64,000 bases of DNA from a virus (IMGVR_UViG_3300022666_000111); one strand, 5' to 3'; counted from the stretch's first letter, positions 2,451 through 37,120 are shown. Notes: generated by a model from the letters alone, not told the origin. Numbers and translations are program-made.

Positions 2451-4412
2451 GTGACCGACTCCGCTTCCAAAACAGCCGCACAAGGCGTCACCATCTACTT
2501 GATGGAGGAGCTAACCGACGCGCGCTTGCGTTGCGAACAGCTCAAGAGGTACATCCAAGACGCCGTGCAGCTCGTTGAGAAATCCCCGCAACGAGACCAC
2601 ATCTTCGAGGTAGCTGGGCATCTTCTGCACGGCATCCCCGAGGCTCTATTCAAGCTGGACAAGGCGTTGGGGGCTACCGCCCTTGCTGCCACCAAGCTGG
2701 ACTACGATGAAATCAAGCAAACGCTCAAGCCCGAAAAGGTGGAGGAGCTTGAGCGCGCCCTTGAGGATTCGAGAATTCGCTACGTAACCCGCCGTTCAGG
2801 AGATACCCCTATGCAACCCAATGAGACCGCAAAGGCTCTTCGGGATGTTGCCGCAGGGCTAGCGGAGTCAGGCCGGTTTCCGGTTAAGGACGTCGCTTCC
2901 ATCGTGGCAATGCTGCGTGAGCAGGAGGTCCCAAACCTCCGGCTTGCAAGCATCCCAACGCGCCTTGATCCCAACATGATCCTTGCCGTAGCAGACGCCA
3001 TCACGGACGGAACCCTCCGGAATCGTGAGCGCCTTGCCGTGGTCCTCGAAACGGCTCTTCAGCAGGCCCTTGGGGGTCAGCAGATGCAAGCGCTTCTGCA
3101 AAGCGCCGGAAGCCGTGAAGAGGTCATGGATGGGTTCAAGAAGGAGAACCCCGCCCTCACGGATGCGCAGCTCAAGGAGATCGCCGACCAATGGGAGGCG
3201 AACAAGGACGTGGTCAAGAACAAGACGGCTCGCAAGGGAGACGGGGATCCCATTTGGGACGTCCGGGGCGGCGTACAGATCGCCCTTGACGATGCCTACA
3301 AGTTCGAGAAGATCGACAAGAGCAACTGGCCCCCGCGTGTGCTCAAGCTGCTTCAGCAAGCCTTCAAGCTGTTGAACCAGGCTAATGACGCCTTCATTCA
3401 GGCCGCCAAGGAAATGGACGGGTCCCCCGCCAAGTTCGCCAATGAAGAGGTGCTTGCGGGCGCCGGGGAGGAATTCCAGAAGGTCAACCCGGCGATCACG
3501 GATGAGCAAGTCGCCATCATCAACGACATGCATGAGAAGCACAAGGACGTCGTCAAGAACAAGCATGCTGGCGATATTCTGAGTGACTTCAGCACGGCCC
3601 TCATTGACCTTTCAACCTCCATGAAGGCGGCCTCCGAGGATATCGAGACCAAGGCTGCTCATGTGTGGAAGATCTGGCGCCAGGTTGAAGGCCCCCAAGG
3701 CGGCGGAGTCAAGAACGAGATGAAGCGGCTCGCGCCCTCCGTGCTTGACATCGTGTCGGACCTCCGGAAGCAGGTCAAGGTCATCAGCGGGCTTCACACC
3801 ATGGCGTGGCGGCACGTGACGGCCGCCGAGAGCGACCATGAGAGCAAGTTCGAGAAGGGGAAGCCAGCCGATCCCACAGAAAACATGACGGATGAACAGA
3901 AGGCCGAATGGGAGCGCCAGAACAAGGAGCACCGTGAGGACTTCAAGGCTGCATCCTCAAATTTTCCTGAATGGCCCACGCCTACCGGCGTCTCTCCCGA
4001 GGAGTGGGCCAATGCCCTTCGTGTCTACGTCGAGGTGACTGACTTTCTGAAGCCTGCCTGGAATGCAGGAACGGAAAACCCCGACCGACGCGGCGTCCCC
4101 CAGATGGACGTCAACATCTTCGTCGACTGGCTTCACGATATGCATGAACAAGGTGCGCCAGCCGCTGAATACGTCGCGCAAACCATCCGGATTGAGACAC
4201 TCCTCAAGAGCCTCATTGAGAGGCTCGACAAGGTGTACTTGAAGCACCGTGATGACATTCTCATGTACATCGACACCCACGGGTCGGCCGGAACGGACTC
4301 CTTTCGAGATCTCCTCTTCGGTCAAGACACGTATGGCGATGTCCTTCGACGGATGCGTCACGAACGGCTCATCACGCTTGACCCTGCGATTCAAGCCTAC
4401 GTGAGGGTGTGA
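2451..4412 (+). CDS. Putative head-internal polyprotein with repeated K-x-A-terminated modules
   Basis: GTG 2451 after GGGAG; three related helical modules ending KNKTA / KNKHA / DFKAA; second in-frame AGGAG-ATG at 2811. Confidence 0.7.
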   Translation: MTDSASKTAAQGVTIYLMEELTDARLRCEQLKRYIQDAVQLVEKSPQRDHIFEVAGHLLHGIPEALFKLDKALGATALAATKLDYDEIKQTLKPEKVEELERALEDSRIRYVTRRSGDTPMQPNETAKALRDVAAGLAESGRFPVKDVASIVAMLREQEVPNLRLASIPTRLDPNMILAVADAITDGTLRNRERLAVVLETALQQALGGQQMQALLQSAGSREEVMDGFKKENPALTDAQLKEIADQWEANKDVVKNKTARKGDGDPIWDVRGGVQIALDDAYKFEKIDKSNWPPRVLKLLQQAFKLLNQANDAFIQAAKEMDGSPAKFANEEVLAGAGEEFQKVNPAITDEQVAIINDMHEKHKDVVKNKHAGDILSDFSTALIDLSTSMKAASEDIETKAAHVWKIWRQVEGPQGGGVKNEMKRLAPSVLDIVSDLRKQVKVISGLHTMAWRHVTAAESDHESKFEKGKPADPTENMTDEQKAEWERQNKEHREDFKAASSNFPEWPTPTGVSPEEWANALRVYVEVTDFLKPAWNAGTENPDRRGVPQMDVNIFVDWLHDMHEQGAPAAEYVAQTIRIETLLKSLIERLDKVYLKHRDDILMYIDTHGSAGTDSFRDLLFGQDTYGDVLRRMRHERLITLDPAIQAYVRV

Positions 4413-5353
4413 TGACGAATCCGCTCGTATCCCGACCTCCTTATGGCACAGGACGCCCTGCAATGCCCGTGGGGGAGTCAAAGCTCCCCCAGGGTGGGCC
4501 TACCGACAAGGGTTTGCCCGTAGACCCAGGGATCCCCGGGGGCGCGACGTTTGCCAAACCTGTTGACGACAAACGGGAGGACCGAAAGGACGACGAGCCC
4601 ATCAAGCGGGTTGACGGTCCTGACGATCTCACCAAGGATCGTGACCGTGTGGACACCAGAGAAGATAATGCCGACCATCACGATGGGATCGGTTTTGGAG
4701 CCCCTGGTCCACAAGATACCTCCAAAACCAAGTACCCCTACCGTGACGGCATCCCCAATACACATAATGCTGTGTCCAAGTTAGGGTCTCTCATGATCAG
4801 TACACGCGTGGCTCTTCGGTTCCAAGCGGTTAAGGACCCCTCTATCGCGGGTAAGGTCAGGGAGATCCTTGAAGCCTTGAAGAGTCTTCAAGGTAAGCTG
4901 GACAAGGCTTGTGATGGGCTGAATGAAGACCTCCGTCAGATTGAAAGGTGGACCAAGGAGACCTCATCCTTTGCAGTACGGTCATCGCTAACGCCCCTAC
5001 GGAATGCCATCCAAGAGACCTTGGAGATGGCCTACCCCTTTGTAGGTAAGCTCAAGGGCGTGCAGAATATGGGGGTAATGGAATTCAAGACGGCGGCCCT
5101 GCGATTCGATGACGTCGCCAAGGATGAGCTGAAGCGGATCGGTGTTACGAAGGACGCCTTGTCCAGATTCGTGAAGCGTGCTGATGTCATCGCAGACATT
5201 TACCGTGAGGTTGAGAGCCTGGCACGCACAGAAAACCTTGGGGGAGGTAAGTTTGTTCGTGGGCTAAAGGCTCTCGCGAAGGCCATGAGTGTGGGCTACA
5301 CTCCCGGGGGGCACATCAAGCAAGCGGTTGTAACCCTTGAAAGGGCTCTCTGA
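4412..5353 (+). CDS. Hypothetical protein (Pro/Asp-rich N half, helical C half)
   Basis: TGATG coupling to the upstream gene; internal MISTRVALRFQA leader-like segment. Confidence 0.7.
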   Translation: MTNPLVSRPPYGTGRPAMPVGESKLPQGGPTDKGLPVDPGIPGGATFAKPVDDKREDRKDDEPIKRVDGPDDLTKDRDRVDTREDNADHHDGIGFGAPGPQDTSKTKYPYRDGIPNTHNAVSKLGSLMISTRVALRFQAVKDPSIAGKVREILEALKSLQGKLDKACDGLNEDLRQIERWTKETSSFAVRSSLTPLRNAIQETLEMAYPFVGKLKGVQNMGVMEFKTAALRFDDVAKDELKRIGVTKDALSRFVKRADVIADIYREVESLARTENLGGGKFVRGLKALAKAMSVGYTPGGHIKQAVVTLERAL

Positions 5354-5913
5354 TGGCAGACCCACGTATCGTTTTGGGGCTCTGGGTCACGCAACACGAG
5401 CCGTCGGTTGTTATCAGCCTGGACGCAAGGGTAGCTGCGACCCTTGACCAGATCGTTTCTGGCTTGTCCAAGACGATCGCGGATCGTGCTTCGACCTGCA
5501 AGGTCTTGCTCAAGAGGGCAGACATCAAGAACCTCCGCTGGATCTTTTCGGTGGACGCTGGTAATGGCCCCAAGGTGGTCCGAATGAAGGCGACGAAGAA
5601 GGGCAATGTGGTAGCCCTAACGAAGATGGACGTTGCCTTCTCGTGTTCTTGCCCAGCTTGGCAATGGCGTGGGCCGGAGCACAATGCGCAATCAGGCGGT
5701 TACTTGGACGGTAAGCCCGCAGGAACGGCTTCACCGCCCAACGTTCGTGACCCACACCGGACCCACAAGGTCTGCAAGCACGTAGCCGCCGTAGTGAGTT
5801 TGGTACGAGGGTGGAGCTTGTCTTCGAAGAAGGCGGGCGCTTATCCTTTCGTTCCAGGTGCATGTTGGGAGGTCTCGAGCGAGCCGGAGCCCCCTGATCA
5901 ATCAAGCTCGTAA
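5353..5913 (+). CDS. SWIM-type zinc finger protein
   Basis: CSCPAW...CKH (CxC...CxH); TGATG coupling. Confidence 0.75.
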   Translation: MADPRIVLGLWVTQHEPSVVISLDARVAATLDQIVSGLSKTIADRASTCKVLLKRADIKNLRWIFSVDAGNGPKVVRMKATKKGNVVALTKMDVAFSCSCPAWQWRGPEHNAQSGGYLDGKPAGTASPPNVRDPHRTHKVCKHVAAVVSLVRGWSLSSKKAGAYPFVPGACWEVSSEPEPPDQSSS

Positions 5914-5925
5914 GATGAGGATCGA

Positions 5926-6959: not shown

Positions 6960-7000
6960 CCCCAACGTGCATCCCTGGGCTCACGGTTATTTTTCAAGAA

Positions 7001-7040: not shown

Positions 7041-7090
7041 ATAGCGGGCACTGGTCGAAGGGATTTCCCTGCAACTCATTAGGAGCGCTC

Positions 7091-7690: not shown

Positions 7691-7693
7691 TGA

Positions 7694-9882: not shown

Positions 9883-9894
9883 TAAGGGGGATCC

Positions 9895-11211: not shown

Positions 11212-12017
11212 TGGCTGACGTCCTCCTCTCAGGAGACATCCTTGGCGAGGCCAACCTCCCGCCGCCCTCGTGGAGTATCCTTCACCGATTGGTAGGATCC
11301 GCGAACGGACTAGCCTCCCTGCCAAGCACCGCGTACATTGGGCATCGCTTGCAAGGAGCTATCTTGGGGAGCGCCGACGTAGAAGGGGCGGCACCGTATC
11401 GAAGCGTCATCGTCTCCGGGAACATTCATGGGGTGGGCACGCTATCCTTGCGAGAGACCAATCTCTCGGGTGCCATCATCGGTGTAGGGTCTACTACGGC
11501 AGTTCTGCACCGATCGCGTATGCTGCACGGGCATATTTCTGGGACGTCCCTTGTAACGTACGCGCAGCCAATGCCCATCATTTGTGGCTGCAACCTCTCT
11601 GCCTACCTTGAGGTTGTTCGCGTTCCGGCCCCTCTGAGCTGCAAGTCTTCGATCCGAACCTTGCGCCTTGGGCAGATGCTGCAACGAGGTGACTTAGGGA
11701 TCTGGATCACGCAGATCGGTAAAGGCGCGATCTCCCCCTACCGTGTGACCTACACGCTCTATCAAGGGCTCCCTGGGTGTGTTCCGAAGCTAATCGGTCC
11801 TTCTGATCGCTACCCAGCTCAAGGCGACATTGGTGAGTACTACGCCACGGGTATCGCTGGGGACGGGGGTCAGCCGGGCCGGTGGCGGATTGTTTGGCGC
11901 TACCAGCTTACTTATGGTGGTCCTGTACTTGAAGAGGCTATGTGCTTCATGATACAAGATGCAATCGCAGCCGGGTCGCCCCCGCCGACCTGTACACGGC
12001 AACGAGGATGGTTCTAA
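11211..12017 (+). CDS. Repeat-containing shaft protein with C-terminal Ig-like domain related to the neck protein N-terminus
   Basis: L.G.I.G repeats; C-terminal GEYYA...G.WRIVW matches GEYYA...GTYRVRW in 12579 protein. Confidence 0.65.
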   Translation: MADVLLSGDILGEANLPPPSWSILHRLVGSANGLASLPSTAYIGHRLQGAILGSADVEGAAPYRSVIVSGNIHGVGTLSLRETNLSGAIIGVGSTTAVLHRSRMLHGHISGTSLVTYAQPMPIICGCNLSAYLEVVRVPAPLSCKSSIRTLRLGQMLQRGDLGIWITQIGKGAISPYRVTYTLYQGLPGCVPKLIGPSDRYPAQGDIGEYYATGIAGDGGQPGRWRIVWRYQLTYGGPVLEEAMCFMIQDAIAAGSPPPTCTRQRGWF

Positions 12018-12355
12018 TGGACAGATCAGCAGTGGCAAAACGCGTTGTAGCACGTTACCTTTCGGCGGCGACCACGAATAAGGGCTTGAAGAACACGGAT
12101 TTCTACTCGGAGGAGTCCGCGTATGCCCTCAAAAACTTCGATCGATCCGACGTGAAGGAAGCCGCACCGACCCTCCTTGGCGTGCTGGACAATCTCAAGG
12201 CCAAGAAGCCTGTCGAGAAGAAAGATGTCCAACAAGCTAGCAAGCAGGTAGCCGACTTGATCGACTACCTTGCGCTTGATTCCGACAAGGACGGCAAGCG
12301 TAAAGCCTTGCGTATTCGAGACTTTCTCGGGGACGTCCTCCGAGAGCTGCGTTGA
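12017..12355 (+). CDS. Putative head-internal protein with VxxRY leader
   Basis: TAATG coupling; MDRSAVAKRVVARYLSA. Confidence 0.7.
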   Translation: MDRSAVAKRVVARYLSAATTNKGLKNTDFYSEESAYALKNFDRSDVKEAAPTLLGVLDNLKAKKPVEKKDVQQASKQVADLIDYLALDSDKDGKRKALRIRDFLGDVLRELR

Positions 12356-12365: not shown

Positions 12366-12572
12366 ATGTCTGCACGTGATGAGATGGCCCGAAGGATTGT
12401 TGCAAGGTACCTGAATGCCTCGGAGGACTACGAGATCCGCTACCGCATCCCTGGTAAGGGCGGGTGGAAGACGAAGTCTTTCAAGGACGAGAAAGCCGCC
12501 CTCAAGTGGGTGAACAAGCAGCAAGAGGGTGACGCTCCTGACATCGAGGTCACCTGGCCGAGCAAGCAATGA
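12366..12572 (+). CDS. Small putative head-internal protein (leader plus AP2/Arm-like domain)
   Basis: GAGGAG RBS; MARRIVARYLNA leader; domain shared with 20088 protein. Confidence 0.7.
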   Translation: MSARDEMARRIVARYLNASEDYEIRYRIPGKGGWKTKSFKDEKAALKWVNKQQEGDAPDIEVTWPSKQ

Positions 12573-20087: not shown

Positions 20088-20498
20088 ATGCACCCTCGTC
20101 AAGCTAGCCTCATCGCCCATGCCGAAGACCTCGTGACATCAACAGCCCCACGAACGGCAGCGGCGATCCTCTACAAGTACACGTGCCCTGAGACGGGTAA
20201 GGACTTCTGGACGGAGTCCAAGCAAACCTCGATCAAGAGCCCCTTCACTGGCAAGTCCTTCGCCGCCAAGCCTGAGAAGTCCTCCCTCGGTGACGTGGGT
20301 AAGGAAGTCAAGAAGGATCAAGAAGCCGCCAAGGCGAAGAAGAAGGCTGGCGAAGAGGGATCGCGCTTGGAGTATCGCCTCCCCGGTGAGGCAACCTTCA
20401 AGACCGCAACCTTCAGCGATTACAGCGCTGCCCTTGGTTGGGTGGACCACCTCATCCAGAAGGCTGGCAAGAATGTCGAAATCCGCTGGAACCCTTGA
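20088..20498 (+). CDS. Putative head-internal protein, two small domains
   Basis: AAGGAG RBS; RQAS, RTAA and KKAG motifs; C domain homologous to 12366 protein. Confidence 0.7.
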   Translation: MHPRQASLIAHAEDLVTSTAPRTAAAILYKYTCPETGKDFWTESKQTSIKSPFTGKSFAAKPEKSSLGDVGKEVKKDQEAAKAKKKAGEEGSRLEYRLPGEATFKTATFSDYSAALGWVDHLIQKAGKNVEIRWNP

Positions 20499-21673: not shown

Positions 21674-21710
21674 GGACGTAATGCCCAGAAAAGATGTGAA
21701 GGAGATGACA

Positions 21711-24482: not shown

Positions 24483-27400
24483 ATGGGCCTTGGACCGTTC
24501 GCGACCTTTGTATTCCCAGGTGTTTACACACGCAGTCTGACTGAAGCCAACGTCAGCAACCTCGTTGCTGGGCTTCGGATTCCGGTGTACATCGGGGTCG
24601 GGCAAGAAGAACTCGAGCAGCTTGACCTGGAGCTTGTGCGTGGCTCTAGCTCAACGCTTGACGAACAGATCGTCAACGAAGACGTCTCGGCGAGCTTCGT
24701 GGTTGACGAGACGAACCCCAACAATCCGGTGCTTGGAGTGACGGATGGGACCTACACCAAGGTCCGCGTTCGCAACTTCCCGATTGTTGATGGTCAGGGG
24801 TTCGGGCGCACCACCAATGACGTTCGCTCCGTGACCGCAACCGTCAACGGTTCGCCGGTCGCCGTGGGTGCCGTACAAGGCGCCAAGGGCTACGTCATCT
24901 TCCAGGTGCCGCCTCAGCCCACAGACATCGTCCGGATCACCTACTACTTCCATCGCGGTGACACCGTCTTCACCGACGACGTGAGCGACCAGGTGACAAC
25001 GACCACGGCTCAGCTCACAACGCCGGGCTTCGCGCCTTTCGAGATCACGACGGGCTCGACGGACAAGTTCATCCTCAAGGTCAACGGTTCGGAGTACACG
25101 ATCACCTTTGCAGGAGGCACCTTCACGGCGACCTCCATCAAGGGTCAAATCGACGTGGCTTCGATTTCGGGCCTCACCACCTCGGTCTTCACCGACGAGC
25201 AAGGTCGGGAGCACGTCCAGCTCAATTCCTCGGTATCCCTTGAGGTCGGAGCGGGATCGGCCAATGGCCCCCTCGGGTTCAGCCAGGGTGAGAAGTCAGC
25301 ACGCAACGTGGCCTTCCGCGTCTACAACATCCCGATCGTCGACGGCACCGGTGGCGGTGTTACCACGACAGACCCCACCAAGGTCGTTGTGCTCGTCAAC
25401 AGTGTCCAGGTAGTTGCAAGCGCGGTCGACGGACGCAACGGCATCGTGACCCTCCCGGCCCCTCCGGCCCCAGGGTCCACCGTCACGATCCGCTACTACG
25501 CGAATACATGGCAAGACACCTTTGACTACCTGCCCAACACGCTCGTCACGGGCGTCATTCGCTGCGGCATCAGCCCGCAGCGCAATGACTACATCGAGAG
25601 CCAGGACTTTGTCATCTCGAACCCCTCGACGGATACCTCGATCATCCATTGGGGAACGAGCTTCACAGTCACCTCGACGAACCGGACCGCTGGCGCAGAG
25701 CCCTTCGATAGCTCCCAAATCGTTCCGACCTTGGTGGACGACAAGCTCTTCCTCGCGGAATGCGAGCGCGTCACGAACACCTCAATGACCCCGGCAACGG
25801 TGTCCTCAACGGAGTTCTACCTCCCTGAAGTCCCGACCATGGGCAACGGTCGAGACACGCCGCTTGGCACGTCGCTCTACAATGACGTCGCCAACAGCCG
25901 CTACGGGCTTGCCTCCGCGCGCCCCGACCTGGTTCAGGTGTACGTCGGCCGGACCCTCCGCGACGCCCTACAGCGCGGGCGCGTGACGGTCACAGCGGTT
26001 GATCCTTCGACCAGCAAGATCGTCCTCAAGAACCCCGTCCCGCCTGACTACAAGGCATTCGCGACCTTCTGGTACAACCGCGTCTCGGATGACACCTTCG
26101 TTCTGACGAACAAGGTCGCCGGTCCGATCGGTGTGGGGCAGTACGAGGTCTACAGCTCGACCTACGCCACGAACCTCTACCAGGTTCGCTTCGGAACCAA
26201 GGGGTCCGGCCTCACCGCAGCCGTCCAATGGCCGCGCGGTGTTGAACAGATCCCGGACGCTTTCCACCACGGTGGTACCCCCGTATCGGAGCAGATCACG
26301 GTCACATTCGGAGTCGCTCCGGCTTGCAACGCAGCCTACACCAACAAGGGTGCATCCCCCTACTCGCTCTACTCGGGGACCTCCTCGAGCTGGACGACGG
26401 TGGTCAATGGCGCTAACCAAGTGACCAACCTGGCTCTTGCAGCCAAGGGCTTCCTGGTCGGCGCGCATGTCACCCCGATCCAAACCGGCATCAATGCCGG
26501 AACCATCGAGATCCCTGCTTCGCCCAGCAACGCCCTCAACCTCACGATTGACGGGACCGAGCTTGCGGTGGCGCTCACGGCGGGTTACAGGACGCCGACC
26601 CAGATCGTAGCGGACATCAACACCGCGATCGACGCGGACCCGGCCTTCTCTGGAACGGCGCCGAACACCCTCGCAGGGTTCAAGCAGATCGGCCCTTCGA
26701 CGGGCGACGTGCTCTTCTACATTCAGAGCTACTCGACCCCCGGCGCGCTGCCCAATGGCTTTGACCACACCTCTACGGTTCTTGTTCGCCAAGGGACGAT
26801 CGAGGCAACCCTCGGGTTCTCGACCTTCCAGACGGCTTCCGGGACCACAGGCGCGATCAACAAGCCCGCGACCTACCTCGGAACCTTGGCAGGCCCCTTC
26901 GCCATCACGGCGGGTCTCAATGACACCGTGAAGTTCCGCCTCAACGGTGTTGACTACGAAGTCACATTGCCAAGCGGCGCGGCGGTCGCAGCGAGCGCGA
27001 TTGTGACGGCGATCAACGCGGTCCCCGGCCTCACGGGTGTTGCCTCGACCAACATCGCGGGTTCGGCATTGGACAAGATCCGCCTCACCAGCCCGATCAA
27101 CACGGACACCTCGTCCATCAGCATCCTCACCGCGAGCGCCAACGAGATCCTCGGCTTCACGGCAGGGGACTATGCTGGTCAGACGCGCGTCACGGCCCAT
27201 GAGATTGCCAACCGGCTCAACAGCACGGCGGGATTCTTCACGGGTGCGATTGCCTACGCGGATACGATCGAAGGCCAGACCTACATCACGATCGAATCCA
27301 TCACGGTCGGCGCGACAGCCTCCAGCATCGCCTTCGCGTCAAGCGCAGGAACCGCCTTCAACCGGACCACGGGCCTCAATATCACCCCTGGAACGGATGG

Positions 27401-28769
27401 CGACGTCGGCGAGAACACCTACGACATGTACACGGTCACCTCGAACAACTCGCTTGGTTCCGCAGGAACCGGCGTCCCGGGGCAGACCTACACGGACGCC
27501 CGCACCGGCCTCCGCTTCACGATCCTCCCGGCAACCACGGGGTCTTACGGATCCGGCCCAACGGTTTACTTCACGATGGACGTCTCCCCGACCTTCGTTG
27601 TGAACCCCGCTGTACCGACCTACGCCCTCCCTGGGCTCGAGACGATCGTGACCAACACGGTCAACGTTGGCGTCAACGACACAGCGACGGTCCAGACCTT
27701 CAACCCCTCGGGCGTTGAGCCTGCGGTCGGTGACTTCTACTTCCTGAGCTACCGCTACATGAAGCAAGACTTCACGACTCGCATCTTCCGGACCTTCAAG
27801 ACCATTGAGTCCAACTTCGGGCGCATCTCGGCGGAGAACCGGGTCACCCTGGCGGCCTACCTTGCGATCTTGAACGGCGCGGTCTTGGTTGGGATCAAGC
27901 AGGTTCTCAAGGTGATCAACACCAACCAAGCCAGTGACTCGAGCTTTATCTCGGCGATCAAGGAGCTTGAGATTCCGCTACCTGGTGGCGTGAAGCCCGA
28001 CATTCTGGTGCCTTTGGCAACCAGCAGCGCGGTCTACGCCTACCTGACGCAGCATTGCGAAGTCATGAGCAATGAGCGCAACCAGAGTGAGCGTATGGGC
28101 ATGATCGGGTTCGCCTCCGGGACGATCCCCACCACGGCCCAGACGGTTGCCAAGTCGCTCAATTCGAACCGCATCATCGCCCTCTACCCGGATTCATCGG
28201 TCATCACCATGACCAACGAGCTGGGCGAGAGCTATGAAACCTTGGTCGACGGCACCTTCTTCGCGGCAGCGGTCGCGGGTGCAGCAGTCAGCCCAGCGGT
28301 TGACGTCGCGACGCCCTACACGCGGCGCCGGATTCAGGGCTTCACACGGATCCCTCGTATCCTCGACGCGGTTGAAGCCAGCCAGACGGCGGTCTCGGGC
28401 GTCACCCTCCTTGAGGACCTCGACCCGATCATCCGGATCCGTCAAGGCTTGACGACCAACATGGCGTCGATCCTCACGCGGCTCCCGACCGTGACGCAGA
28501 TCGCGGACTACGTGCAGCAGCAAAGCCGCATGATCCTCGACTCCTTCGTCGGAACCAAGTTCTTGCCTTCGCGCACGAACGAGGTTGAGGTCACGATGAC
28601 GGGGCTCTTCAAGAGCCTCATCCAGGCGGAAATCATCGCGGCCTTCACGGGAGTGGCCGCAGCGGTTGATGCCGATGACCCGACGATCCTCCGGTTCGAA
28701 GCCTTCTATCAGCCGGTCTTCCCGCTCCTCTACCTCGTCCTCACCTTCAACATCCGCGCACGGATTTGA
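24483..28769 (+). CDS. Contractile tail sheath protein with multiple inserted domains (1428 aa)
   Basis: N-terminal PGVYT; C-terminal sheath core (ER.G.IG, RIRQGLTT, DYV, FVG.K, YQPVFPL.Y..LTF). Confidence 0.9.
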   Translation: MGLGPFATFVFPGVYTRSLTEANVSNLVAGLRIPVYIGVGQEELEQLDLELVRGSSSTLDEQIVNEDVSASFVVDETNPNNPVLGVTDGTYTKVRVRNFPIVDGQGFGRTTNDVRSVTATVNGSPVAVGAVQGAKGYVIFQVPPQPTDIVRITYYFHRGDTVFTDDVSDQVTTTTAQLTTPGFAPFEITTGSTDKFILKVNGSEYTITFAGGTFTATSIKGQIDVASISGLTTSVFTDEQGREHVQLNSSVSLEVGAGSANGPLGFSQGEKSARNVAFRVYNIPIVDGTGGGVTTTDPTKVVVLVNSVQVVASAVDGRNGIVTLPAPPAPGSTVTIRYYANTWQDTFDYLPNTLVTGVIRCGISPQRNDYIESQDFVISNPSTDTSIIHWGTSFTVTSTNRTAGAEPFDSSQIVPTLVDDKLFLAECERVTNTSMTPATVSSTEFYLPEVPTMGNGRDTPLGTSLYNDVANSRYGLASARPDLVQVYVGRTLRDALQRGRVTVTAVDPSTSKIVLKNPVPPDYKAFATFWYNRVSDDTFVLTNKVAGPIGVGQYEVYSSTYATNLYQVRFGTKGSGLTAAVQWPRGVEQIPDAFHHGGTPVSEQITVTFGVAPACNAAYTNKGASPYSLYSGTSSSWTTVVNGANQVTNLALAAKGFLVGAHVTPIQTGINAGTIEIPASPSNALNLTIDGTELAVALTAGYRTPTQIVADINTAIDADPAFSGTAPNTLAGFKQIGPSTGDVLFYIQSYSTPGALPNGFDHTSTVLVRQGTIEATLGFSTFQTASGTTGAINKPATYLGTLAGPFAITAGLNDTVKFRLNGVDYEVTLPSGAAVAASAIVTAINAVPGLTGVASTNIAGSALDKIRLTSPINTDTSSISILTASANEILGFTAGDYAGQTRVTAHEIANRLNSTAGFFTGAIAYADTIEGQTYITIESITVGATASSIAFASSAGTAFNRTTGLNITPGTDGDVGENTYDMYTVTSNNSLGSAGTGVPGQTYTDARTGLRFTILPATTGSYGSGPTVYFTMDVSPTFVVNPAVPTYALPGLETIVTNTVNVGVNDTATVQTFNPSGVEPAVGDFYFLSYRYMKQDFTTRIFRTFKTIESNFGRISAENRVTLAAYLAILNGAVLVGIKQVLKVINTNQASDSSFISAIKELEIPLPGGVKPDILVPLATSSAVYAYLTQHCEVMSNERNQSERMGMIGFASGTIPTTAQTVAKSLNSNRIIALYPDSSVITMTNELGESYETLVDGTFFAAAVAGAAVSPAVDVATPYTRRRIQGFTRIPRILDAVEASQTAVSGVTLLEDLDPIIRIRQGLTTNMASILTRLPTVTQIADYVQQQSRMILDSFVGTKFLPSRTNEVEVTMTGLFKSLIQAEIIAAFTGVAAAVDADDPTILRFEAFYQPVFPLLYLVLTFNIRARI

Positions 28770-28833: not shown

Positions 28834-30138
28834 ATGGACGACCTTGTCACCTGTCTCATCTGTGGGCATCAAGCCCAAACCCTAGCAAGACACCTTAAGG
28901 CAGCGCACGGCATCACGGCGGACGCCTACCGGGAACAACACCCTGGTGCGCGCATTCGTTCGGAGGCTTGTGAGGCTAACCGTAGGGCTGCCATAGCGCA
29001 GGCTCATACGGACAAGCCGCGCACGGGGCTCAAGAAGACGATCGTGTGTCCTTGTGGCGTTGCCCATGATGTTGGGCTGACCTTCGCCTCGAAAGACCTC
29101 CGTTGCCCGGCCTGCAAGGCGCGGGACGCGCTGGCGAAGGCCGCTCAGCCAAAGGTGCGAGGCCCGTCACCGCTCAAGGGGCGCAAGCTCTCGGATGAGG
29201 TTCGGGCCAAGATGTCCGAGAACGCCGGGCGTTGGAACAAGGGTCTCACCAAGGATACGGATGAACGTGTCAAGGCTGTTTCTGAGCACCGTATGGGGCA
29301 GCCCTCTTGGAGCAAGGGCTTGACCAAGGATGACCACCCGAGCCTTCGAAGCACCTCCGAGAAGCTTTCGGCGCTCAAGACAGGGCAGCCCTGCTCCAAT
29401 GGCCTCAAGGCTGACCTCTCGGAGGTCGACTTCACGCCTTACTTGGACGCCACGGGGGCGGTTGACCGCAAGGCGATGGCCGAGGAGCTTGGCCTTTCAG
29501 AGCGTACGGTCACGGCCTACATGGAGGGCCTGGGGCTACGCCTCTCGGACGAGCGGACGCAGGTGCGTGTAGAGCGCGACCTTGAGAGCGGACGCTTCTT
29601 CGAGATGAGCCGCAAGTCAGCGGAGCTTACGCGCGTCGTGCTCACAGCGGAGCAGCTTGAGCCCTACCGGCAGGTCAACGGTAAGGTCGTCCTGGCGCAT
29701 GCCATGCGGGGCTTGGGGCACACGGCGACGACGATCCGTAAGGAATGCGTTCGGCTTGGACTCCCCGTCAGGGTACACGCCACGCAGCAGATTCTATGTC
29801 TTGAGGCCATCAAGGACGTCCTCGGCGGCGCTCCTTACGAAATGGAGTGGCGTTCGATGCGGTTTGTAAACCCGCCCACGGGACATCAATTCCGCTTTGA
29901 CGGCTACTTCCCGAGCCACGCCCTCGTGGTTGAATTCCAGGGGTACCAGCACTGGGTCTTTCCGAGCGTCTTCATCAAGCAGCGAGAGATCTTCGATGCC
30001 CTGGTCGAGCGAGACCGGGTCAAGGCGCGGCTCATCCGGGAGTCCGGTGACCTTCACTATCTTGAGCTTCGTGAGGATGAGCCCTACACGGACGCGGTTT
30101 ACCTGCGGGAGCGTCTTTTGGATGTCCTTTCTGTGTGA
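28834..30138 (+). mobile_element. Free-standing homing-endonuclease-like gene (Zn finger, NUMOD3-like, HTH, PD-(D/E)XK/Vsr-like nuclease)
   Basis: CLICG...HL...HG; WNKGLTK/WSKGLTK repeats; RFDGYF....VVEFQG.QH. Confidence 0.72.
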
Positions 30139-30176
30139 TTCCACTTGTAACCCGTTACAACTGATCAGGCTTGGAT

Positions 30177-30230
30177 AGGGTGCCCCCGTAGCCCCTCCCC
30201 CTCGGCGGGGGCACCCTGTCTCTTTTCTTT
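30177..30230 (+). terminator. Intrinsic terminator
   Basis: 12-bp stem AGGGTGCCCCCG / CGGGGGCACCCT followed by GTCTCTTTTCTTT. Confidence 0.65.
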
Positions 30231-30237
30231 CAATCCT

Positions 30238-30265
30238 TGTCAGATCGATCGAACCCCCGACGTCA
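30238..30265 (+). promoter_or_regulatory. ECF-sigma-type promoter (ECF41-like)
   Basis: TGTCAGA-N16-CGTCA, 8 nt before ATG 30274. Confidence 0.6.
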
Positions 30266-30273
30266 TGGGGGTT

Positions 30274-30591
30274 ATGACAATCACAAACCTTACACCCCAC
30301 GCCCTCAACCTCATCACTGCCACTGGAACCGTGACCGTCGCCCCTAGCGGCGCCGTCGCCCGGTGTGCAACTACCAGCGCCCCTGCGGGGGAAGCTGAAG
30401 GCGTACCTCTTGTGCGCACCTCCTATGGGGAAGTCGTCGGTCTCCCCGACCCCAGCCCTGGGACCCTCTTCGTGGTGAGCGCCCTCGTCCGAGCCGCTGT
30501 ACCTCACCGCGCCGACGTCGCCTCCCCCGGTGACCTCGTCCGTGATGCCTCTGGCAACGTTGTCGGTTGCCGAAACCTTGTCATCAACTGA
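30274..30591 (+). CDS. Conserved viral hypothetical protein (NLTPH family)
   Basis: NLTPH...PSG..AR...GLP......VS....RD..G...GC pattern recurrent in phages. Confidence 0.8.
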   Translation: MTITNLTPHALNLITATGTVTVAPSGAVARCATTSAPAGEAEGVPLVRTSYGEVVGLPDPSPGTLFVVSALVRAAVPHRADVASPGDLVRDASGNVVGCRNLVIN

Positions 30592-30613
30592 TCCAACGGT
30601 GTAGGATCCAGGT

Positions 30614-30877
30614 ATGCCTGGATCCCTCATGCACGACGACCGTGAGTACGTGATCGTCGCCTCAACCCCTAACTGGGTACGCGCTTCACACCTTGCCGAC
30701 GAGGTCCGCAAGCAAATCTATGGCTACGAGATCAAGGATTGGGTTGACCACCTTGAAGACGTCCTGGCCTACAATGGGCACACGAACCTCGTCCTCGTTG
30801 ATAAGGACGCGTGGGCCGCGTATGACCACAAAGACCGGCTCCTAGCCTACAGTCAGGGTTACGTTGACGCGGAGTAA
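30614..30877 (+). CDS. Hypothetical protein
   Basis: ATG 9 nt after CGGTGTAG (30597-30604). Confidence 0.6.
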   Translation: MPGSLMHDDREYVIVASTPNWVRASHLADEVRKQIYGYEIKDWVDHLEDVLAYNGHTNLVLVDKDAWAAYDHKDRLLAYSQGYVDAE

Positions 30878-30880
30878 GCC

Positions 30881-31123
30881 ATGAGTCAGGACTGGCGACA
30901 CATCGATGCCTTTTTGCGTCTTCGGGCAGAGCAGATGACGGCCAACCCGGACAGCTACACCCAGGAAGAGGGCCGGGCGCTTGACCGGGCGCTACGCACC
31001 TGCCCGACAGTCATCGACATAGACGTCGTTTGGGTGCGTTGGCGTTATGTTGGAGAGCCTCGAGGTTGGATAACCACCGACGAGTTGGTGACCACCAAGA
31101 AGGGCTACTGCTATCCCAAGTAG
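30881..31123 (+). CDS. Hypothetical protein
   Basis: GGAG RBS. Confidence 0.6.
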   Translation: MSQDWRHIDAFLRLRAEQMTANPDSYTQEEGRALDRALRTCPTVIDIDVVWVRWRYVGEPRGWITTDELVTTKKGYCYPK

Positions 31124-31151
31124 ACACTTCTCCTTGTAAACAGGCGGGAGT

Positions 31152-31487
31152 ATGCCCCCGCGCACCTTACGAGATCTCATCCCGCCACAATACCACGCCC
31201 CAACGATGCAGGACTTCATTGAGGGTGGCGCCGAGACACCTGTCGAGGACATCTCGGACTTTGAGCGTGGGATGCTCGCAGCCCTTCCAGGGGATGACAT
31301 CTCCCAGCACCCTGCTTACCGTGAATTTGCCGCCAACCCCTTCCGAGGGCGCAACCCTCAAGTGGTCCTTCGAATGCTCAAAGAGGGGACCATCGAAAGT
31401 CAGGCGGAGCGCAAGCAAGCCATGGAGTGGATCAACCTTTGTGAACGGTGCGGTGAGAAAATTCGAGCATATCGCCCTGATGGTTGA
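31152..31487 (+). CDS. Hypothetical protein
   Basis: ORF filling the gap before the helicase. Confidence 0.55.
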   Translation: MPPRTLRDLIPPQYHAPTMQDFIEGGAETPVEDISDFERGMLAALPGDDISQHPAYREFAANPFRGRNPQVVLRMLKEGTIESQAERKQAMEWINLCERCGEKIRAYRPDG

Positions 31488-31522
31488 TCCTCAGCCAAGT
31501 TCGGTGTAGGAGCCCACACGCC

Positions 31523-34500
31523 ATGGAAAACATCCCCCACACGGCTACGGAATTGGATGACGAGCGGATCGGTGAGCTGAAGGTCGCCGAGTACCTCATC
31601 TTCCTTTTCGCCCTTGATACCTACATGCGTTACCTCGAGGAGATTCGCTCCCTCAAGGTCAACACTGACATCGATCCGGATGACGCCGTCCTCAAGCAGG
31701 GGTTGGCCTTGCTCCGCATGGCAGACCGTGAGCACCTGTCGATCGTCAAGAACGAGATCGCCGCAAGCGTCACGAACCCCGCAAGCCTCTCCATGCTGGA
31801 GATCGCTATCAACTTGCCTCCGACCCCCAAGGGGGCAGCCATACGGACCCTCAAGCTCCGGACGATCCTTTCCAGGGGCGGGACCGCTACCAGCAAGGCC
31901 ATCTTCGGCAAGTCCACCAAGGCCCGGACGGAGATCCGTGAGGCTATGGACGCCGCCATGCTGGAAGATTCCGACGCGGCTCTTGCTAAGCTGGCGATGA
32001 TCGATATCCGAAACACCCGGCTTGAGAGGTGGATCGACCTCGCTTCCGAAACAGCACGCCCCTTGCCCATAGCGGACATCAATCCGGTGGCAGCCGCTAC
32101 CAAGGTGGTGACTGACTCCACCCAGACCCTTCTCGAGGTAGGTCTTGCCCGTGACGGATCCACGGCGGCCTCCGAAGAATCCGCCCGGCATACGAAGGCG
32201 CAGGCCGATACCCTCCGCCAGATCGAGGCCGACGCACAACACGCCGCCGCCAAGGGAATCACCAAGTCGGGAGAGTCTGATGCTCCCGTGACGCGTTCCG
32301 AAGCCATCGCCATTGCGACGACGGTCGCCGCAGCCCAGAAGGCTGACACGTCGGACATCCGCAACATCCCTCCGGAATTCATCAACAGCGGCTACCCTCT
32401 TGACCCCGAGCAGATGGCTGCTGCCCTCACGGACGGGCGTGTTCTGGTCGCCGCAGGCGCCGGGGCAGGCAAGAGCACCACGCTGGTGTCCCGTATCGCC
32501 TACCTGGTCAAGACGAAGGGCGTCAAGCCCTCTCGGATCTTCGCTTGCTCCTTCAACACCAAGGCCGCCAACGAGGTAGGTTCGAAGGTCGCCGCCAAGG
32601 TCGGAGAGACCGCCCGTGACCAGATGAGCATTGGGACCATGAACGCCCTCTTCGCTCGGTTCATCCGGGGCGACGTTCGACGGGGAATCCCAGCATTTGG
32701 AACGGCAGAAGAGCGCGAGCTTTTCACCGACGCACGGCTCATTGCGGATCCTGAGCCCCCCAAGACTACGAAGCAAGGGCCTAAGCCCATCAACATGACC
32801 AAGGCGATCCAAGGGATCTTCAAGCAATGCGCCTCGGCGCTACCCGCCTACACAGGGTGGCCCGCGAGCTGGTTTGAAGACATCCCCAAGGCGAAGAAGT
32901 GCAACCTCTTCGTCGGCGTCTGGAAGGGCAACGACGTGGACTACAAGCAAGCCCGCGCCAATGCACGATCCAAGTCCGAGAAGATCGCCTCCCTTTGGTA
33001 CGAGTTCTACCTTGGCCTCAAGGGCGACCTGCCTGGGTGGCACCCTCCCTGCCGCGTGTGCAAGTCCTTCGACAATTGGATGAAGGACTACCGCCCCGGT
33101 GGTGAGCGTCTTGGGGACCTTGACGACCAGATCCGGATCCTTCGCGACATTCTTCGCCGTGACCCCGAGGCTCGCCGAAGAATCCAAGGGATGTTTGACC
33201 ACATCCTGGTCGACGAAGCCCAGGACCGCAACCTCCTCAACTCCGAAGTATTCGACCTCATGTCGGAGCATATCACGGATGGGTCCGATGGAAAGAGCCT
33301 TTGGATCGTCGGTGACGACAAGCAGGCGATCTATCAATTCCGAGGGGCTCGCCCGGAGATCTTCTCGGGGTTGCACAACAAGGAGGGTTGGACGACCCGC
33401 ATGATCCGGACGAACTATCGCTGCGCGCCCGAGATCGTGGAGGCTGCCAACCGCCTTGCGGCCAACAACACCAACCAGATCCCCATGGAGGCGCAAGCGA
33501 ACCCTGACAAGCCGCGTGGCCGGGCTAGCATTGAAGTGGACATTCCCGAGGATCATGCCACGGGCGCAGCTAGAACGATCAGCCGCATCATGAAGGACAC
33601 AACGGAGCCCCCGATTGGACACGGGAGCCGTCGTGACGAGTACGCGGTCCTCTCCCGAACCAACCGAGAGCTTGACGACTACGAGACGGCTTGCTGCATC
33701 GCTGAGATGCCCTATGCCCGAACGGGCGGTCGCGGCCTCTTCGACTCCCCTGAATCGAAGACGGTCCTGGGCTACGTCGACTTGGCCTACGGGGTGGACT
33801 TCGAGAAGACTGTCAAGAGCCTCTCCGATGCCCTCATGAAACCTGATCGCGGGCTCTTCCTCTCCGCCGCCAAGGTCGCCCAAATCGTCGAAGAGACCCT
33901 GGGTGACGTGGCTCGTATGGAGGGTCGCAGCGTCAAGGACGTCAACCCGCTCGACCTCATCTTGAAGGAGCGCTACGCCCGAGAGCTTGCCCTTGCCCTC
34001 AAGACACCCTATCGCGCCAAGATCCCGGCCTTCGTCTTCGATAAGACCGTCAACCAGCTCACCCGGTCCCTCCTTGAAATGGGCGGGCAGGTCGTCAAGA
34101 TCCGCGAGACCCTCAACGAGGGCAATGGCGCCAGCGACGTCATCAACACCATCCTCGACGGTGTCTCCTCCACGGTTACAATGTGGGACAAGGACCTCCG
34201 CCGTGAGGTGTCGACGACCAAGACCCTCCGTGAGCAGATCACGGAGGACCTCGCGGTATTCGGGGATGATGAAGAGGAGGAGCAGGAAGAGGTCGTAGCC
34301 GAGCCGGAGCGGACCCCTGAAGGCGACTTGGTTCCGGTCAAGCCCTCAACGCCCAACCCTGCCAAGGGGCTAGGCGCCGTGCAGTTCCTCTACCTCTTGA
34401 GCGAGCAGAACAACACGGACATCCAAGAGGGCACCGACCCCTCAACCTCGGCGGGTTTCCTCAAGAAGCTCACCCGGATCCGAAACAACTCCGACAAGCT

Positions 34501-34975
34501 CCGGGTTGACCTCGGCAAATGGGCGAAGGCTCAAGCCGCCTTGCCGCCTGATCAGCGTCAGAAGCGACCTGACTGCATCATCCTTTCCACGGTCCATTCG
34601 GTGAAGGGTGCTGAATGGAGGGACGTTACGGTGGTCATGGCGCCAGGCAAGTTCCCCATCGAGCTGAAGCCTAGCAAGGATGACGCTCCGCCTACGCCGG
34701 AGGAGATGGAAGCGCACCTCCAAGCGGAGCGCAATCTGGGCTACGTTGCCCTTACACGGGCGGCGGAGAGCCTCACGGTCCTTTGCCCGCCCCAGGGCAA
34801 ACACACCGGCCTGAGCCGCTTTGTGATCGAAGCAGGGCTAACGGTTGGGCAGAATGTCGAGAGCCCCGAGGGTACCGAGGGCGCCGCAAAGACGGCCTCT
34901 ACTTGGGTTGATCATGGGCTTGATGTGGAATACATCAGCAACCTGGCGGAAGTGCCCGCCAGCTATGCGAGGTAG
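31523..34975 (+). CDS. uvrD: UvrD/PcrA-like SF1A DNA helicase with ~290-aa N-terminal extension
   Basis: AGAGAGKS, LVDEAQD, VGDDKQAIYQFRGA, NYRC, STVHSVKGAEW, ERNLGYVALTRA. Confidence 0.92.
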   Translation: MENIPHTATELDDERIGELKVAEYLIFLFALDTYMRYLEEIRSLKVNTDIDPDDAVLKQGLALLRMADREHLSIVKNEIAASVTNPASLSMLEIAINLPPTPKGAAIRTLKLRTILSRGGTATSKAIFGKSTKARTEIREAMDAAMLEDSDAALAKLAMIDIRNTRLERWIDLASETARPLPIADINPVAAATKVVTDSTQTLLEVGLARDGSTAASEESARHTKAQADTLRQIEADAQHAAAKGITKSGESDAPVTRSEAIAIATTVAAAQKADTSDIRNIPPEFINSGYPLDPEQMAAALTDGRVLVAAGAGAGKSTTLVSRIAYLVKTKGVKPSRIFACSFNTKAANEVGSKVAAKVGETARDQMSIGTMNALFARFIRGDVRRGIPAFGTAEERELFTDARLIADPEPPKTTKQGPKPINMTKAIQGIFKQCASALPAYTGWPASWFEDIPKAKKCNLFVGVWKGNDVDYKQARANARSKSEKIASLWYEFYLGLKGDLPGWHPPCRVCKSFDNWMKDYRPGGERLGDLDDQIRILRDILRRDPEARRRIQGMFDHILVDEAQDRNLLNSEVFDLMSEHITDGSDGKSLWIVGDDKQAIYQFRGARPEIFSGLHNKEGWTTRMIRTNYRCAPEIVEAANRLAANNTNQIPMEAQANPDKPRGRASIEVDIPEDHATGAARTISRIMKDTTEPPIGHGSRRDEYAVLSRTNRELDDYETACCIAEMPYARTGGRGLFDSPESKTVLGYVDLAYGVDFEKTVKSLSDALMKPDRGLFLSAAKVAQIVEETLGDVARMEGRSVKDVNPLDLILKERYARELALALKTPYRAKIPAFVFDKTVNQLTRSLLEMGGQVVKIRETLNEGNGASDVINTILDGVSSTVTMWDKDLRREVSTTKTLREQITEDLAVFGDDEEEEQEEVVAEPERTPEGDLVPVKPSTPNPAKGLGAVQFLYLLSEQNNTDIQEGTDPSTSAGFLKKLTRIRNNSDKLRVDLGKWAKAQAALPPDQRQKRPDCIILSTVHSVKGAEWRDVTVVMAPGKFPIELKPSKDDAPPTPEEMEAHLQAERNLGYVALTRAAESLTVLCPPQGKHTGLSRFVIEAGLTVGQNVESPEGTEGAAKTASTWVDHGLDVEYISNLAEVPASYAR

Positions 34976-34977
34976 TC

Positions 34978-35340
34978 ATGGCCTTTGTTGCGGTCACTCT
35001 GAGCGATATCACGCTCTTCTTGAACCGGGCCTTTCGGGCCTTGGACCCTAAGCCCGGCCCCGTTCGTTACGGGGAGCTGACGTATGACCTCGAGCTGAGC
35101 CCCAAGACGTTCATTCGGGTTTACACGTCGGTCCACCAAGGGGCAGAGAGCGCAGCCGGTGTAGGTTCAGATGCTATCCGCGTCGGGCTCTTCGGCGGGG
35201 CCAATGGTCGACCCCTCAAGTCGGGCAAGATGCCAATCGTCAAGCGCACCAACTCCTGGAAGGACACTCTCCGGGAGACCATCGAGGATTTCATCATTGA
35301 GTACGACGAGAAGCGAGACTACTGGGATTCGAGGTACTGA
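34978..35340 (+). CDS. Conserved phage hypothetical protein
   Basis: GAGG RBS; IRVYTS...G.DAIRV...RT..W motif. Confidence 0.7.
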   Translation: MAFVAVTLSDITLFLNRAFRALDPKPGPVRYGELTYDLELSPKTFIRVYTSVHQGAESAAGVGSDAIRVGLFGGANGRPLKSGKMPIVKRTNSWKDTLRETIEDFIIEYDEKRDYWDSRY

Positions 35341-35353
35341 GCTACACTTCAAC

Positions 35354-36088
35354 GTGGTGGTGAACCCCTCCTTGACGGCTGCTCCGGAGGGGTCAATGCT
35401 CTTTGACGGTGACCTCCTCAAGTTCTACCTCTCGCTGATCTCCGGCACCCCCCTCCCCCTCACGCTTTGCGTCCTGTCTGTAGCGAACGTCTCCACGGTG
35501 ATGGCGCTTGCGCTATTCCTTCACAGGGACCTGGCTATCAATCCTGCCACGCTTGGGGTTGTATCTGCCGTCCGTCTCGTTGAAGAGGCCCCCTTTTGGG
35601 GGCCTGCGCACATCGATCGTGACCTTGCTCGGTTGATTCACCACACCCAGCGCTACTTGTCCCAGCCCAACCTTCAGGGCGAGAGTATCACGTCAGCCAT
35701 CGAGTGGTTTCGAGACTACCTTCGACAAGGGACGCTTCCACAAATGGGAGCCTCACCGTCGCCGCCAGCAGTACACCTCACGGGATCCGATGGGTTCGTC
35801 CTGGCAGAGACAGCCGGGGCTTTCCAGCTAGGGTGGATTGAGCTATTCAGGCAAGGGTTTCTTCGTGGCATACTCATCGGGCCGGTCCGGGGGGATAGGC
35901 GGCCGGTGATGCTGGCTCGGAAGAGCCCTGTGGTTGCGTTTGACTTGAACCTCGCGGCACAAACGCTCAATTCCATGGAGGATGCTATGGGGGAGGATGT
36001 GAAGTGGGAGCTGAAGGGGGACGCTCTCACTTGTTCGGGGACGCTCATCACGATCCAGCACATGCTTATGTTGGCGACGCGGGTCTAG
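35354..36088 (+). CDS. Hypothetical protein (start uncertain)
   Basis: Open frame 35171-36088; first non-overlapping start is GTG ~35354. Confidence 0.6.
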   Translation: MVVNPSLTAAPEGSMLFDGDLLKFYLSLISGTPLPLTLCVLSVANVSTVMALALFLHRDLAINPATLGVVSAVRLVEEAPFWGPAHIDRDLARLIHHTQRYLSQPNLQGESITSAIEWFRDYLRQGTLPQMGASPSPPAVHLTGSDGFVLAETAGAFQLGWIELFRQGFLRGILIGPVRGDRRPVMLARKSPVVAFDLNLAAQTLNSMEDAMGEDVKWELKGDALTCSGTLITIQHMLMLATRV

Positions 36089-36273: not shown

Positions 36274-36334
36274 GTCCCTGGTATGCTGAAGCCTGCCACG
36301 GATCAACGTTTCTTTTCTATGCCGTCATCAGGCG

Positions 36335-37120
36335 ATGGCCCTCAAGCTAGTCACCGTAGCGACGGACGGCGTAACCAACCACGTCATTACCCCTGATGGC
36401 AGCCGGTACAACCTCGGAAGCATGCCCGTGGTTCGGCTTGTCACCACGTTGGTGCGCGACACACGTAAGGCGCGTGACGTCTTGAACGAGTTCCTGGAGG
36501 GTGGGTCTGCGTCATTTGTAGCCGACCTTGACCTTGTAGCGGATCTCTTCATGCCCCGACGTACACGGTGGAGCGCAGAGGCGTTTCCTTTTATCCCCCG
36601 TCAGAATCGACTTCCCGCGATACCACGAGGCACTACCATGGCTGACACGTCCGAAAGATCACTGGATCAAGCAATCTCCCAGCAAATCGACGAGATCGAG
36701 AACATGATCTCGATCATCGAGCAGAAGGCGAAGGAAGCCGAGAAGGGCTCCTTGTCCTACACGATGATGTCCGATGACATCGCGAACCTCCACAAGCTCG
36801 TTAAGAGCCTTGGAAAGCCCCCAACAGGCCAGAGCACCAATCATGCGTTCGCTTCGGTTGACACGCTCGAGTCCAATGCGCGTTTGGCAGAGGACATCCT
36901 CAACAAGCTCGACGTGACTCGGACAACCGTAGATCGATTGGCTTCCGAGGGGCGCCGGTTCAATGCCTCGGCGGCACGCATGGACCTCCATGTCATCGCC
37001 ACAGGTGTTCACAACGTTCTGACCAACACAGACCTGGCGATGCCCTACGTCACGGCCGACCTCAAGACGTTGGCCGACCGTACGGATCACATTCATGGCC
37101 TTTTCGCAGAGGCCAAGTAA
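36335..37120 (+). CDS. Hypothetical late protein (possible second start 36638)
   Basis: Preceded by T-rich motif; internal motif plus GAGG-ATG at 36638. Confidence 0.7.
   Translation: MALKLVTVATDGVTNHVITPDGSRYNLGSMPVVRLVTTLVRDTRKARDVLNEFLEGGSASFVADLDLVADLFMPRRTRWSAEAFPFIPRQNRLPAIPRGTTMADTSERSLDQAISQQIDEIENMISIIEQKAKEAEKGSLSYTMMSDDIANLHKLVKSLGKPPTGQSTNHAFASVDTLESNARLAEDILNKLDVTRTTVDRLASEGRRFNASAARMDLHVIATGVHNVLTNTDLAMPYVTADLKTLADRTDHIHGLFAEAK

Follow-up and report, generated by a model that had tools for sequence, protein, structure and literature searches.

The neck-to-baseplate module of a megaphage (IMGVR_UViG_3300022666_000111) raises the question of whether unrelated proteins of a virion can share a common address. 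We analysed a stretch of 64,000 nucleotides, referred to here as the window, which covers this module and belongs to a 341-kb contig. For positions 2451-37120, an initial annotation had described two recurring elements: a short leader preceding unrelated domains, and a [KR]-x-A-[ASG] string at apparent domain boundaries. The window was compared with related IMG/VR sequences and with the two records nearest to its tail sheath, those of an uncultured 485-kb phage, LR745208.1 (39% identity), and of the jumbo phage Tunturi_5, which is cultured on Tunturiibacter psychrotolerans.

A leader shared by unrelated proteins

Every string quoted in the initial annotation was found at the gene to which it had been assigned. 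The leader, hereafter the tag, comprises 10 to 12 residues with the consensus [LVMI]-A-x-R-[VI]-x-x-R-[YF]-L. A strict regular expression matched only three open reading frames (ORFs) in the window, all on the + strand and each 8 to 11 residues after the ATG; a looser expression added a single, spurious match in a minus frame. The relationship was also evident when the N-terminal 31 residues of 58 proteins were compared all-versus-all, without presupposing a motif. Specifically, g12017 and g12366 were the best non-homologous pair, with a score of 39, and g12017 and g16252 ranked third at 32, as compared to a maximum of 31 for internal control segments.

A hidden Markov model (HMM) of the tag was built from 17 copies drawn from the data and used to search 1.06 million residues, consisting of six-frame ORFs of the window, three IMG/VR contigs, three loci, the whole of LR745208 and part of Tunturi_5. 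The highest score among reversed decoys was 7.7 bits. The window yielded scores of 18.0 (g12366), 17.1 (g12017), 15.5 (g16252) and 13.4 bits (a cassette inserted in the g4412/g5353 gene), everything else scoring 4 bits or less. Thus, exactly four window proteins carry the tag. The claim of related leaders on unrelated proteins was borne out by these three N-terminal copies and one cassette-heading copy, all above the decoys. The leader had also been said to occur on many proteins, and this was an overstatement: the Dps-like protein, g5353 (SWIM), g2451, the helicase and g36335 have no tag. The N-terminal AVANIVRKAS string of the Dps-like protein was considered as a degenerate copy and rejected, its score being below that of the lowest listed HMM match, 3.1 bits.

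The DNA of the four window copies is approximately 64% identical, the same residues being encoded by different codons. This argues for a constraint on the peptide and not for an RNA element or a recent duplication. The tag is real and is selected at the protein level. No description of such a tag was found in the literature searched; it is portable and apparently undescribed.

The tag is short and two of the genes that carry it, g12017 and g12366, are adjacent and could be tandem duplicates, so that the leader might be a remnant of common ancestry among old paralogues, or a common helix-forming segment without shared function. However, the similarity among the tagged proteins ends sharply after approximately 12 residues, their bodies are unrelated, and the HMM scores are far above those of the decoys. 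Moreover, the tag is found not only at N-termini but also internally and behind Dps-like domains, and it is kept in the g16252 family down to 32% identity, with another leader substituting for it in one member. An origin of this kind is, in our judgement, very improbable.

Tagged proteins of the window and portability of the tag

The first tagged protein, g12017 (12017-12355, + strand), is a 112-residue ORFan whose N-terminal tag lies at approximately 12032-12079. A search of 5.8 billion proteins found no homologue but itself, and an IMG/VR scan gave no match. Its neighbour, g12366 (12366-12572, + strand), has 68 residues, consisting of the tag (approximately 12384-12431) and a small domain of 45 residues. 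Residues 20-64 of g12366 are homologous to residues 90-134 of g20088 (E = 3e-8), in which the domain occurs without the tag. A tblastn search with g12366 against Tunturi_5 and LR745208 returned nothing, and none of the tagged window proteins matched Pfam or PHROG. The two genes occupy the slot between the connector paralogues g11211 and g12579. In the relatives L008 and G001, the same slot holds small tagged ORFs, which are HMM matches from outside the seed.

The cassette (4772-5353, + strand) encodes 193 residues, is headed by a tag at approximately 4793-4840, and is an in-frame insert in the g4412/g5353 gene; in G001 and G002, the g4412 N-terminal part and g5353 form one ORF. The cassette begins directly after '..H-N-A', and the alignment places the insertion point between '..H-x-A' and 'DP.IV'. 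The stop codon of the cassette overlaps the ATG of g5353. Of the two flanking parts, g4412 (4412-4771, + strand) is the conserved N-terminal part of the split protein, aligning to residues 1 to approximately 125 of the fused homologues, and g5353 (5353-5913, + strand) is the SWIM-like zinc-finger half, for which the SWIM match is weak (E = 0.0066).

The complete LR745208 genome contains approximately 10 tagged ORFs. Most carry the tag at the N-terminus; in a 1763-residue protein it is internal, and in a Peptidase_C39-like protein it is C-terminal. The tag moves between unrelated protein bodies.

The g16252 family and a second leader

The remaining tagged protein, g16252 (16252-17196, + strand), is a conserved helical protein of 314 residues with its N-terminal tag at approximately 16264-16311 and a K-Q-A-G string at 17056-17067 in a disordered linker. 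It has 69 homologues, with identities down to 32%. Of the 65 homologues aligned, 62 have their best match to the tag beginning no later than residue 23, and 32 of them score at least 8 bits. Within the family, the Arg preceding the aromatic residue of the tag and A271 are each at least 90% conserved. The tag is nearly universal in the g16252 family.

In the AlphaFold model of g16252 (mean predicted local distance difference test score, 80), residues 2-17, which hold the tag, are predicted to form a helix of their own, linked to a low-confidence tether. The tether is followed by a helical head and a long coiled-coil hairpin, then by a low-confidence segment, 258-275, which contains K269-Q-A-G, and by a C-terminal helix, 275-311. 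Foldseek comparison of the model with the PDB gave generic coiled-coil and BAR-like matches only (E ≥ 0.07), and there was no usable match in the ESM Atlas. Tblastn against Tunturi_5 and LR745208 gave a single match at chance level (E = 0.05).

One g16252 homologue, P0069, has another leader in place of the tag (..LIRVAYENPDMRGDLLPLI..), which is common to at least six LR745208 ORFs. This swap suggests that the two leaders are interchangeable. The second leader type is not present in the window. Where it occurs, it is N-terminal and approximately 28 residues long, TLRSKLIRLAHxNPxLRPxLLPLLK; the LR745208.1 ORFs that bear it are 398602-398174, 391035-389896 and four more.

The [KR]-x-A-[ASG] motif in the window

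The second element did not behave as a recurrent processing motif in this window. Between 2451 and 37120 we counted 37 [KR]-x-A-[ASG] strings against 29.0 expected from composition, and outside this interval 24 against 23.2. A frequency no higher than composition predicts is the very result that the initial annotation had named as speaking against its proposal. When 8000 patterns of the form a-x-b-c were ranked, no pattern of the [KR]-x-A class came close to the top, whether in the pre-sheath, the middle or the tail set. Using a null model of local composition, the best window protein was the Dps-like one, with p = 0.02 among 56 ORFs.

Conservation was evaluated for the 57 sites whose proteins have two or more homologues in the six relatives compared. 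Only two sites are well conserved: K269 of g16252 (5/5) and R4 of g20088 (4/5). Partial conservation was found for R26 of g5353 (2/3), in the R-V-A-A string at 5428-5439, and for R47 and R222 of the Dps-like protein (2/6 each). No site in g2451, g4412, the helicase or g36335 is conserved. The placement of the motif at domain boundaries thus holds in part: a few sites lie in linkers and are conserved, whereas most of those listed are not conserved.

The g20088 protein (20088-20498, + strand) starts with MHPRQA[SAT], which is followed by a K-x-A-[AS] string before the core domain, a K-rich linker and, at 20355-20489, the small domain that it has in common with g12366. MHPRQA begins seven of the seven g20088 copies in the window and its relatives. 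Overall, the [KR]-x-A-[ASG] strings of the window are mostly due to chance. Judging by their conservation, g16252 K269, the tail of the Dps-like protein, g20088 and g5353 R26 might be true cleavage sites for the head-maturation protease of this clade.

The motif beside the head protease of two relatives

In LR745208, the genome-wide count of the motif is at expectation (333 versus 328). Nevertheless, the three most deviant of its 583 ORFs all lie within approximately 15 kb of the protease gene: a 614-residue protein with 11 sites versus 2.2 expected (p = 2e-5), an acidic scaffold-like protein beside the protease with 11 versus 2.8, and a 211-residue protein close to the protease with 5 versus 1.1. 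K-x-A-S is the first of the 8000 patterns in the protease module of LR745208 (18 versus 4.3), an interval that was picked after these outliers were known, while the rest of the genome is flat (31 versus 33). With an interval set beforehand at 10 kb on either side of the protease gene, the count in LR745208 is 8 versus 2.5, at rank 18.

Using the same preset interval in Tunturi_5, K-x-A-S ranks first (11 versus 2.0, p = 7e-6). The two top ORFs of this genome are gp328, annotated as a DNA ejection protein (14 versus 3.3), and gp332, which is beside the protease gene (9 versus 2.3); the tail fibres have zero sites. A related string, K-x-A-A, is over-represented throughout the Tunturi_5 (PP885688.1) proteome, with 82 versus 38 expected outside the protease neighbourhood, and the repeated 'SKAAA' strings of the 1362-residue gp321 are part of this excess.

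The over-representation of the motif beside the protease gene in these two relatives makes a protease site common to the clade plausible and, more specifically, a K-x-A-[SA] preference of the head protease. The enrichment in the protease and scaffold neighbourhood therefore supports one part of the original proposal; on the other side, the capsid protein of the clade shows no propeptide.

Separability of tag and motif

The initial annotation had coupled the leader to the motif. Three results speak against this. First, the 17 tag copies are not consistently followed by a [KR]-x-A or any other fixed site. Second, the whole genome of Tunturi_5 contains no tag above the decoy level, although the motif is enriched there. 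Third, the tagged proteins of LR745208 contain 12 motif sites versus 9.2 expected, which rules out that tagged proteins are richer in the motif. The tag and the motif are not one coupled system.

Proteins proposed as payload

The Dps-like ferritin-fold protein (20473-21171, + strand) matched 30 Dps chains in the PDB, with the best E value, 8e-4, over residues 69-132, and it matched phrog_3636 with E = 3e-7; its score against the Pfam Ferritin family was below the cut-off. The sequence match takes in the four-helix bundle, including the ferroxidase-centre region, and supports a Dps-like assignment weakly but consistently. All relatives have a conserved copy of the protein in their structural module. 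Its R-Q-A-S string, at 21136-21147, is in a semi-conserved C-terminal tail. Among its 89 homologues, a [KR].A[ASG] string lies within 20 residues after YLL[QK]QR in 33 of 81. The tail common to these homologues reads YLL[QK]QR..[KR]xAS.. and terminates in WKA or YSYDRR.

Two homologues, P0082 and P0084, as well as the copy in L004, have a [KR]-x-A-[SN] string, then the tag 17 to 30 residues further on, and then a further module. Two others have tag-like N-termini that score just under the decoy maximum. Outside this window, therefore, Dps-like proteins occasionally carry the tag, whereas the copy in the window does not.

The UvrD-type helicase (31523-34975, + strand; Pfam UvrD-helicase, E = 3e-40) is encoded between the sheath gene and the probable tail-tube gene, and its C-terminal K-T-A-S string is conserved in none of three relatives. 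The 653-residue g2451 (2451-4412, + strand) is a charged helical repeat protein with five [KR].A[ASG] sites versus 1.9 expected and no tag above the threshold; none of its sites is conserved in two partial homologues. The g2451 homologue in LR745208 bears the tag. Within g2451, a repeat with the pattern ..NPxxTDxQ...KDVVKNK[TH]A.. is present three times, and pieces of the protein recur at two distant places in LR745208, at approximately 388 and 474 kb. The last protein, g36335 (36335-37120, + strand), had been cited for a D-R-L-A-S string.

None of the Dps-like, SWIM and helicase proteins bears the tag in the window, and there is no evidence in this window that any of them is cargo. This bears on the proposal in its complete form, according to which the leader and an Ala-P1 [KR]-x-A site constitute one system that packages, cleaves and injects Dps, the SWIM protein, small DNA-binding domains and the helicase. 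The tag itself is real, some sites in linkers are conserved, two relatives show enrichment of the motif next to the protease, and the three Dps-like proteins described above combine a motif string with a tag and a module. However, the window contains the motif no more often than chance predicts, the principal members of the supposed payload are untagged, the spacing between tag and motif is not fixed, the motif of Tunturi_5 is unaccompanied by the tag, and tagged proteins show no surplus of motif sites. On balance, we consider the complete system improbable.

Role of the tag

The reading that we prefer, to which we give an even chance, is that the portable tag is an address helix for virion assembly, and that the [KR]-x-A strings are a separate matter, mostly chance in this window with a few possible protease sites. 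The tag forms a basic amphipathic helix, joined to its passenger by a short flexible tether, and would dock that passenger to a common partner during virion assembly. The partner would most likely be in the prohead interior, the neck being a serious alternative. The conserved motif sites, in turn, could be cut by the head-maturation protease of the clade.

Several observations weigh against this reading. With respect to cleavage, the motif is not enriched in the window. The interval chosen after the fact in LR745208 and the lower rank obtained with the preset one count on the same side, and linkers rich in Lys, Ala and Ser could account for such strings even if no protease acts on them. A propeptide cut site in the clade's capsid protein was sought and rejected, as this protein aligns from residue 2 with gp27 of phage G. 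The K-T-A-A and K-L-A-A strings near its N-terminus are not conserved in phage G, and a capsid protein without a propeptide provides no evidence of cleavage. The Tunturi_5 paper reports no virion mass spectrometry. With respect to head loading, no window gene matched a head protease, scaffold or capsid protein. In LR745208, the tagged genes are dispersed through the genome, and Pfam matches are nearly absent from those examined. Finally, the tagged genes of the window are in the neck/tail part of the module, a location that neck docking fits as well as head loading does.

The tag might accordingly dock somewhere other than the capsid interior, for instance at the neck or collar, as in the N-terminal anchoring of T4 fibritin, or on an assembly chaperone or ATPase or at a membrane, in which case the passengers would not be injected. 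All four window copies are in the neck/tail part, two of them exactly between g11211 and g12579, as in L008 and G001. The predicted long coiled coil of g16252, with its terminal helices, the basic amphipathic character of the helix, and the lack of enrichment of the putative cut motif in tagged proteins are also in keeping with docking of this kind. In relatives, however, tags are also found on a head-module protein (the g2451 homologue of LR745208), after Dps-like domains and on scattered genes, and these varied locations suit a general address better than a single neck site. We regard docking outside the capsid interior as possible, if doubtful.

A wider arrangement is also conceivable. In soil and freshwater megaphages, the tag and the K-x-A-[SA] motif might be the two halves of a clade-wide code in which the helix and interchangeable leaders of the LIRLAHxNPxLRPxLLPLL type load the prohead, and a protease with a Lys-P3/Ala-P1 preference trims the scaffold, the ejection proteins and some passengers. 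We think such a code rather unlikely; if it exists, it would be a capsid-loading system unlike that of T4 or phiKZ. This window's contribution is four tagged proteins and no enrichment of the motif. If the tag is an address label, sequence alone would reveal the particle-borne proteins of huge uncultured phages, and the tag would offer a handle for loading foreign proteins into their capsids.

Genomic setting and other genes of the module

All long genes of the window are on the + strand, and the G+C content is approximately 59%. The tail sheath is a 1428-residue protein encoded at 24483-28769. Genes on its 3' side encode a virion structural protein (the probable tail tube), a tail assembly chaperone, a putative tape measure and proteins of the baseplate. 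On its 5' side are the connector paralogues g11211 and g12579, the 'head protein' family copies g9496 and g10828, and many genes of unknown function. Synteny with the IMG/VR relatives L004-L010 spans g7091 to the sheath. According to CheckV, 79 kb of one of these relatives represents 17% of its genome, which would put these genomes at roughly 460 kb and make them megaphages. No portal, MuF or protease gene was detected among the window genes searched. In LR745208, the head protease, scaffold and capsid genes precede the g1253 and g2451 homologues by 8-12 kb.

Positions 21681-22727 encode a Volactin-type actin-fold protein (PF25216, E = 1.6e-78) that is approximately 70% identical across all syntenic relatives. 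Its gene is within the tail-gene block, with the Dps-like and lipoprotein genes on one side and the tail terminator on the other. From the sheath to the probable tail-tube gene, at 28834-36088, there is an accessory block comprising a Ros/MucR-type zinc-finger protein, small ORFs and the 1150-residue UvrD-type helicase; the corresponding site is empty in LR745208. A DUF7487 protein (13528-14898; E = 6e-37) with N-terminal zinc-finger-like CxxC/H motifs directly follows the connector gene, and short zinc-ribbon proteins (g5926, g23948) are repeated along the module. In L008, at 1136-3232, the g12579 homologue is in two pieces with an insert of approximately 1.2 kb between them, possibly an intron, an intein or a homing element.

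Comparison with known systems

Polyvalent proteins and effectors fused to MuF or portal proteins offer a parallel in the notion of exchangeable passenger modules inside the head; the paper describing them mentions neither such a tag nor the word 'linker' (Iyer et al. 2017, PMC5512222). Unlike this cargo, the tagged proteins of the window are small (68-314 residues), non-enzymatic and not fused to head proteins, and no enzyme domain was found in them.

In T4, a capsid targeting sequence (CTS) on the internal proteins IPI-III and Alt is removed by the gp21 prohead protease, according to Mullaney and Black (1996), as cited in PMC10052503, and to a review (PMC9026906). Like the CTS, the tag is a short, portable N-terminal peptide on unrelated proteins encoded by late genes, here as three N-terminal copies and one heading a cassette. 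Unlike the CTS, which is hydrophobic and acidic and ends in L/I-x-E, the tag is a basic helix with no sequence likeness to it and no consistent cut site after it: across the 17 copies, no protease consensus follows the peptide in a consistent way. The tag also occurs internally and C-terminal to domains.

The cleavage motif of phiKZ and SPN3US ends in Glu (S/A/G-x-E). The head and ejection proteins of these phages carry N-terminal propeptides that are cut by gp175/gp245, with cleavage having been measured in SPN3US (PMC10052503, PMC7411985). The resemblance is that of giant phages in which a short motif, here K-x-A-[SA], is repeated in scaffold-like and ejection proteins, as in LR745208 and Tunturi_5. 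Beside the protease of both of these phages the motif is over-represented relative to composition and to tail proteins; in the window it is not. The differences are a putative P1 residue of Ala with Lys/Arg at P3, a protease of another PHROG family (phrog_18299), and a cleavage that is deduced from counts. The K/R-x-A-[SAG] candidate would thus be at most an analogue of phiKZ/SPN3US processing, and not a member. If the K-x-A-[SA] preference is true, it would represent a new head-maturation specificity and, as Tunturi_5 is cultured, the idea is directly testable in that phage.

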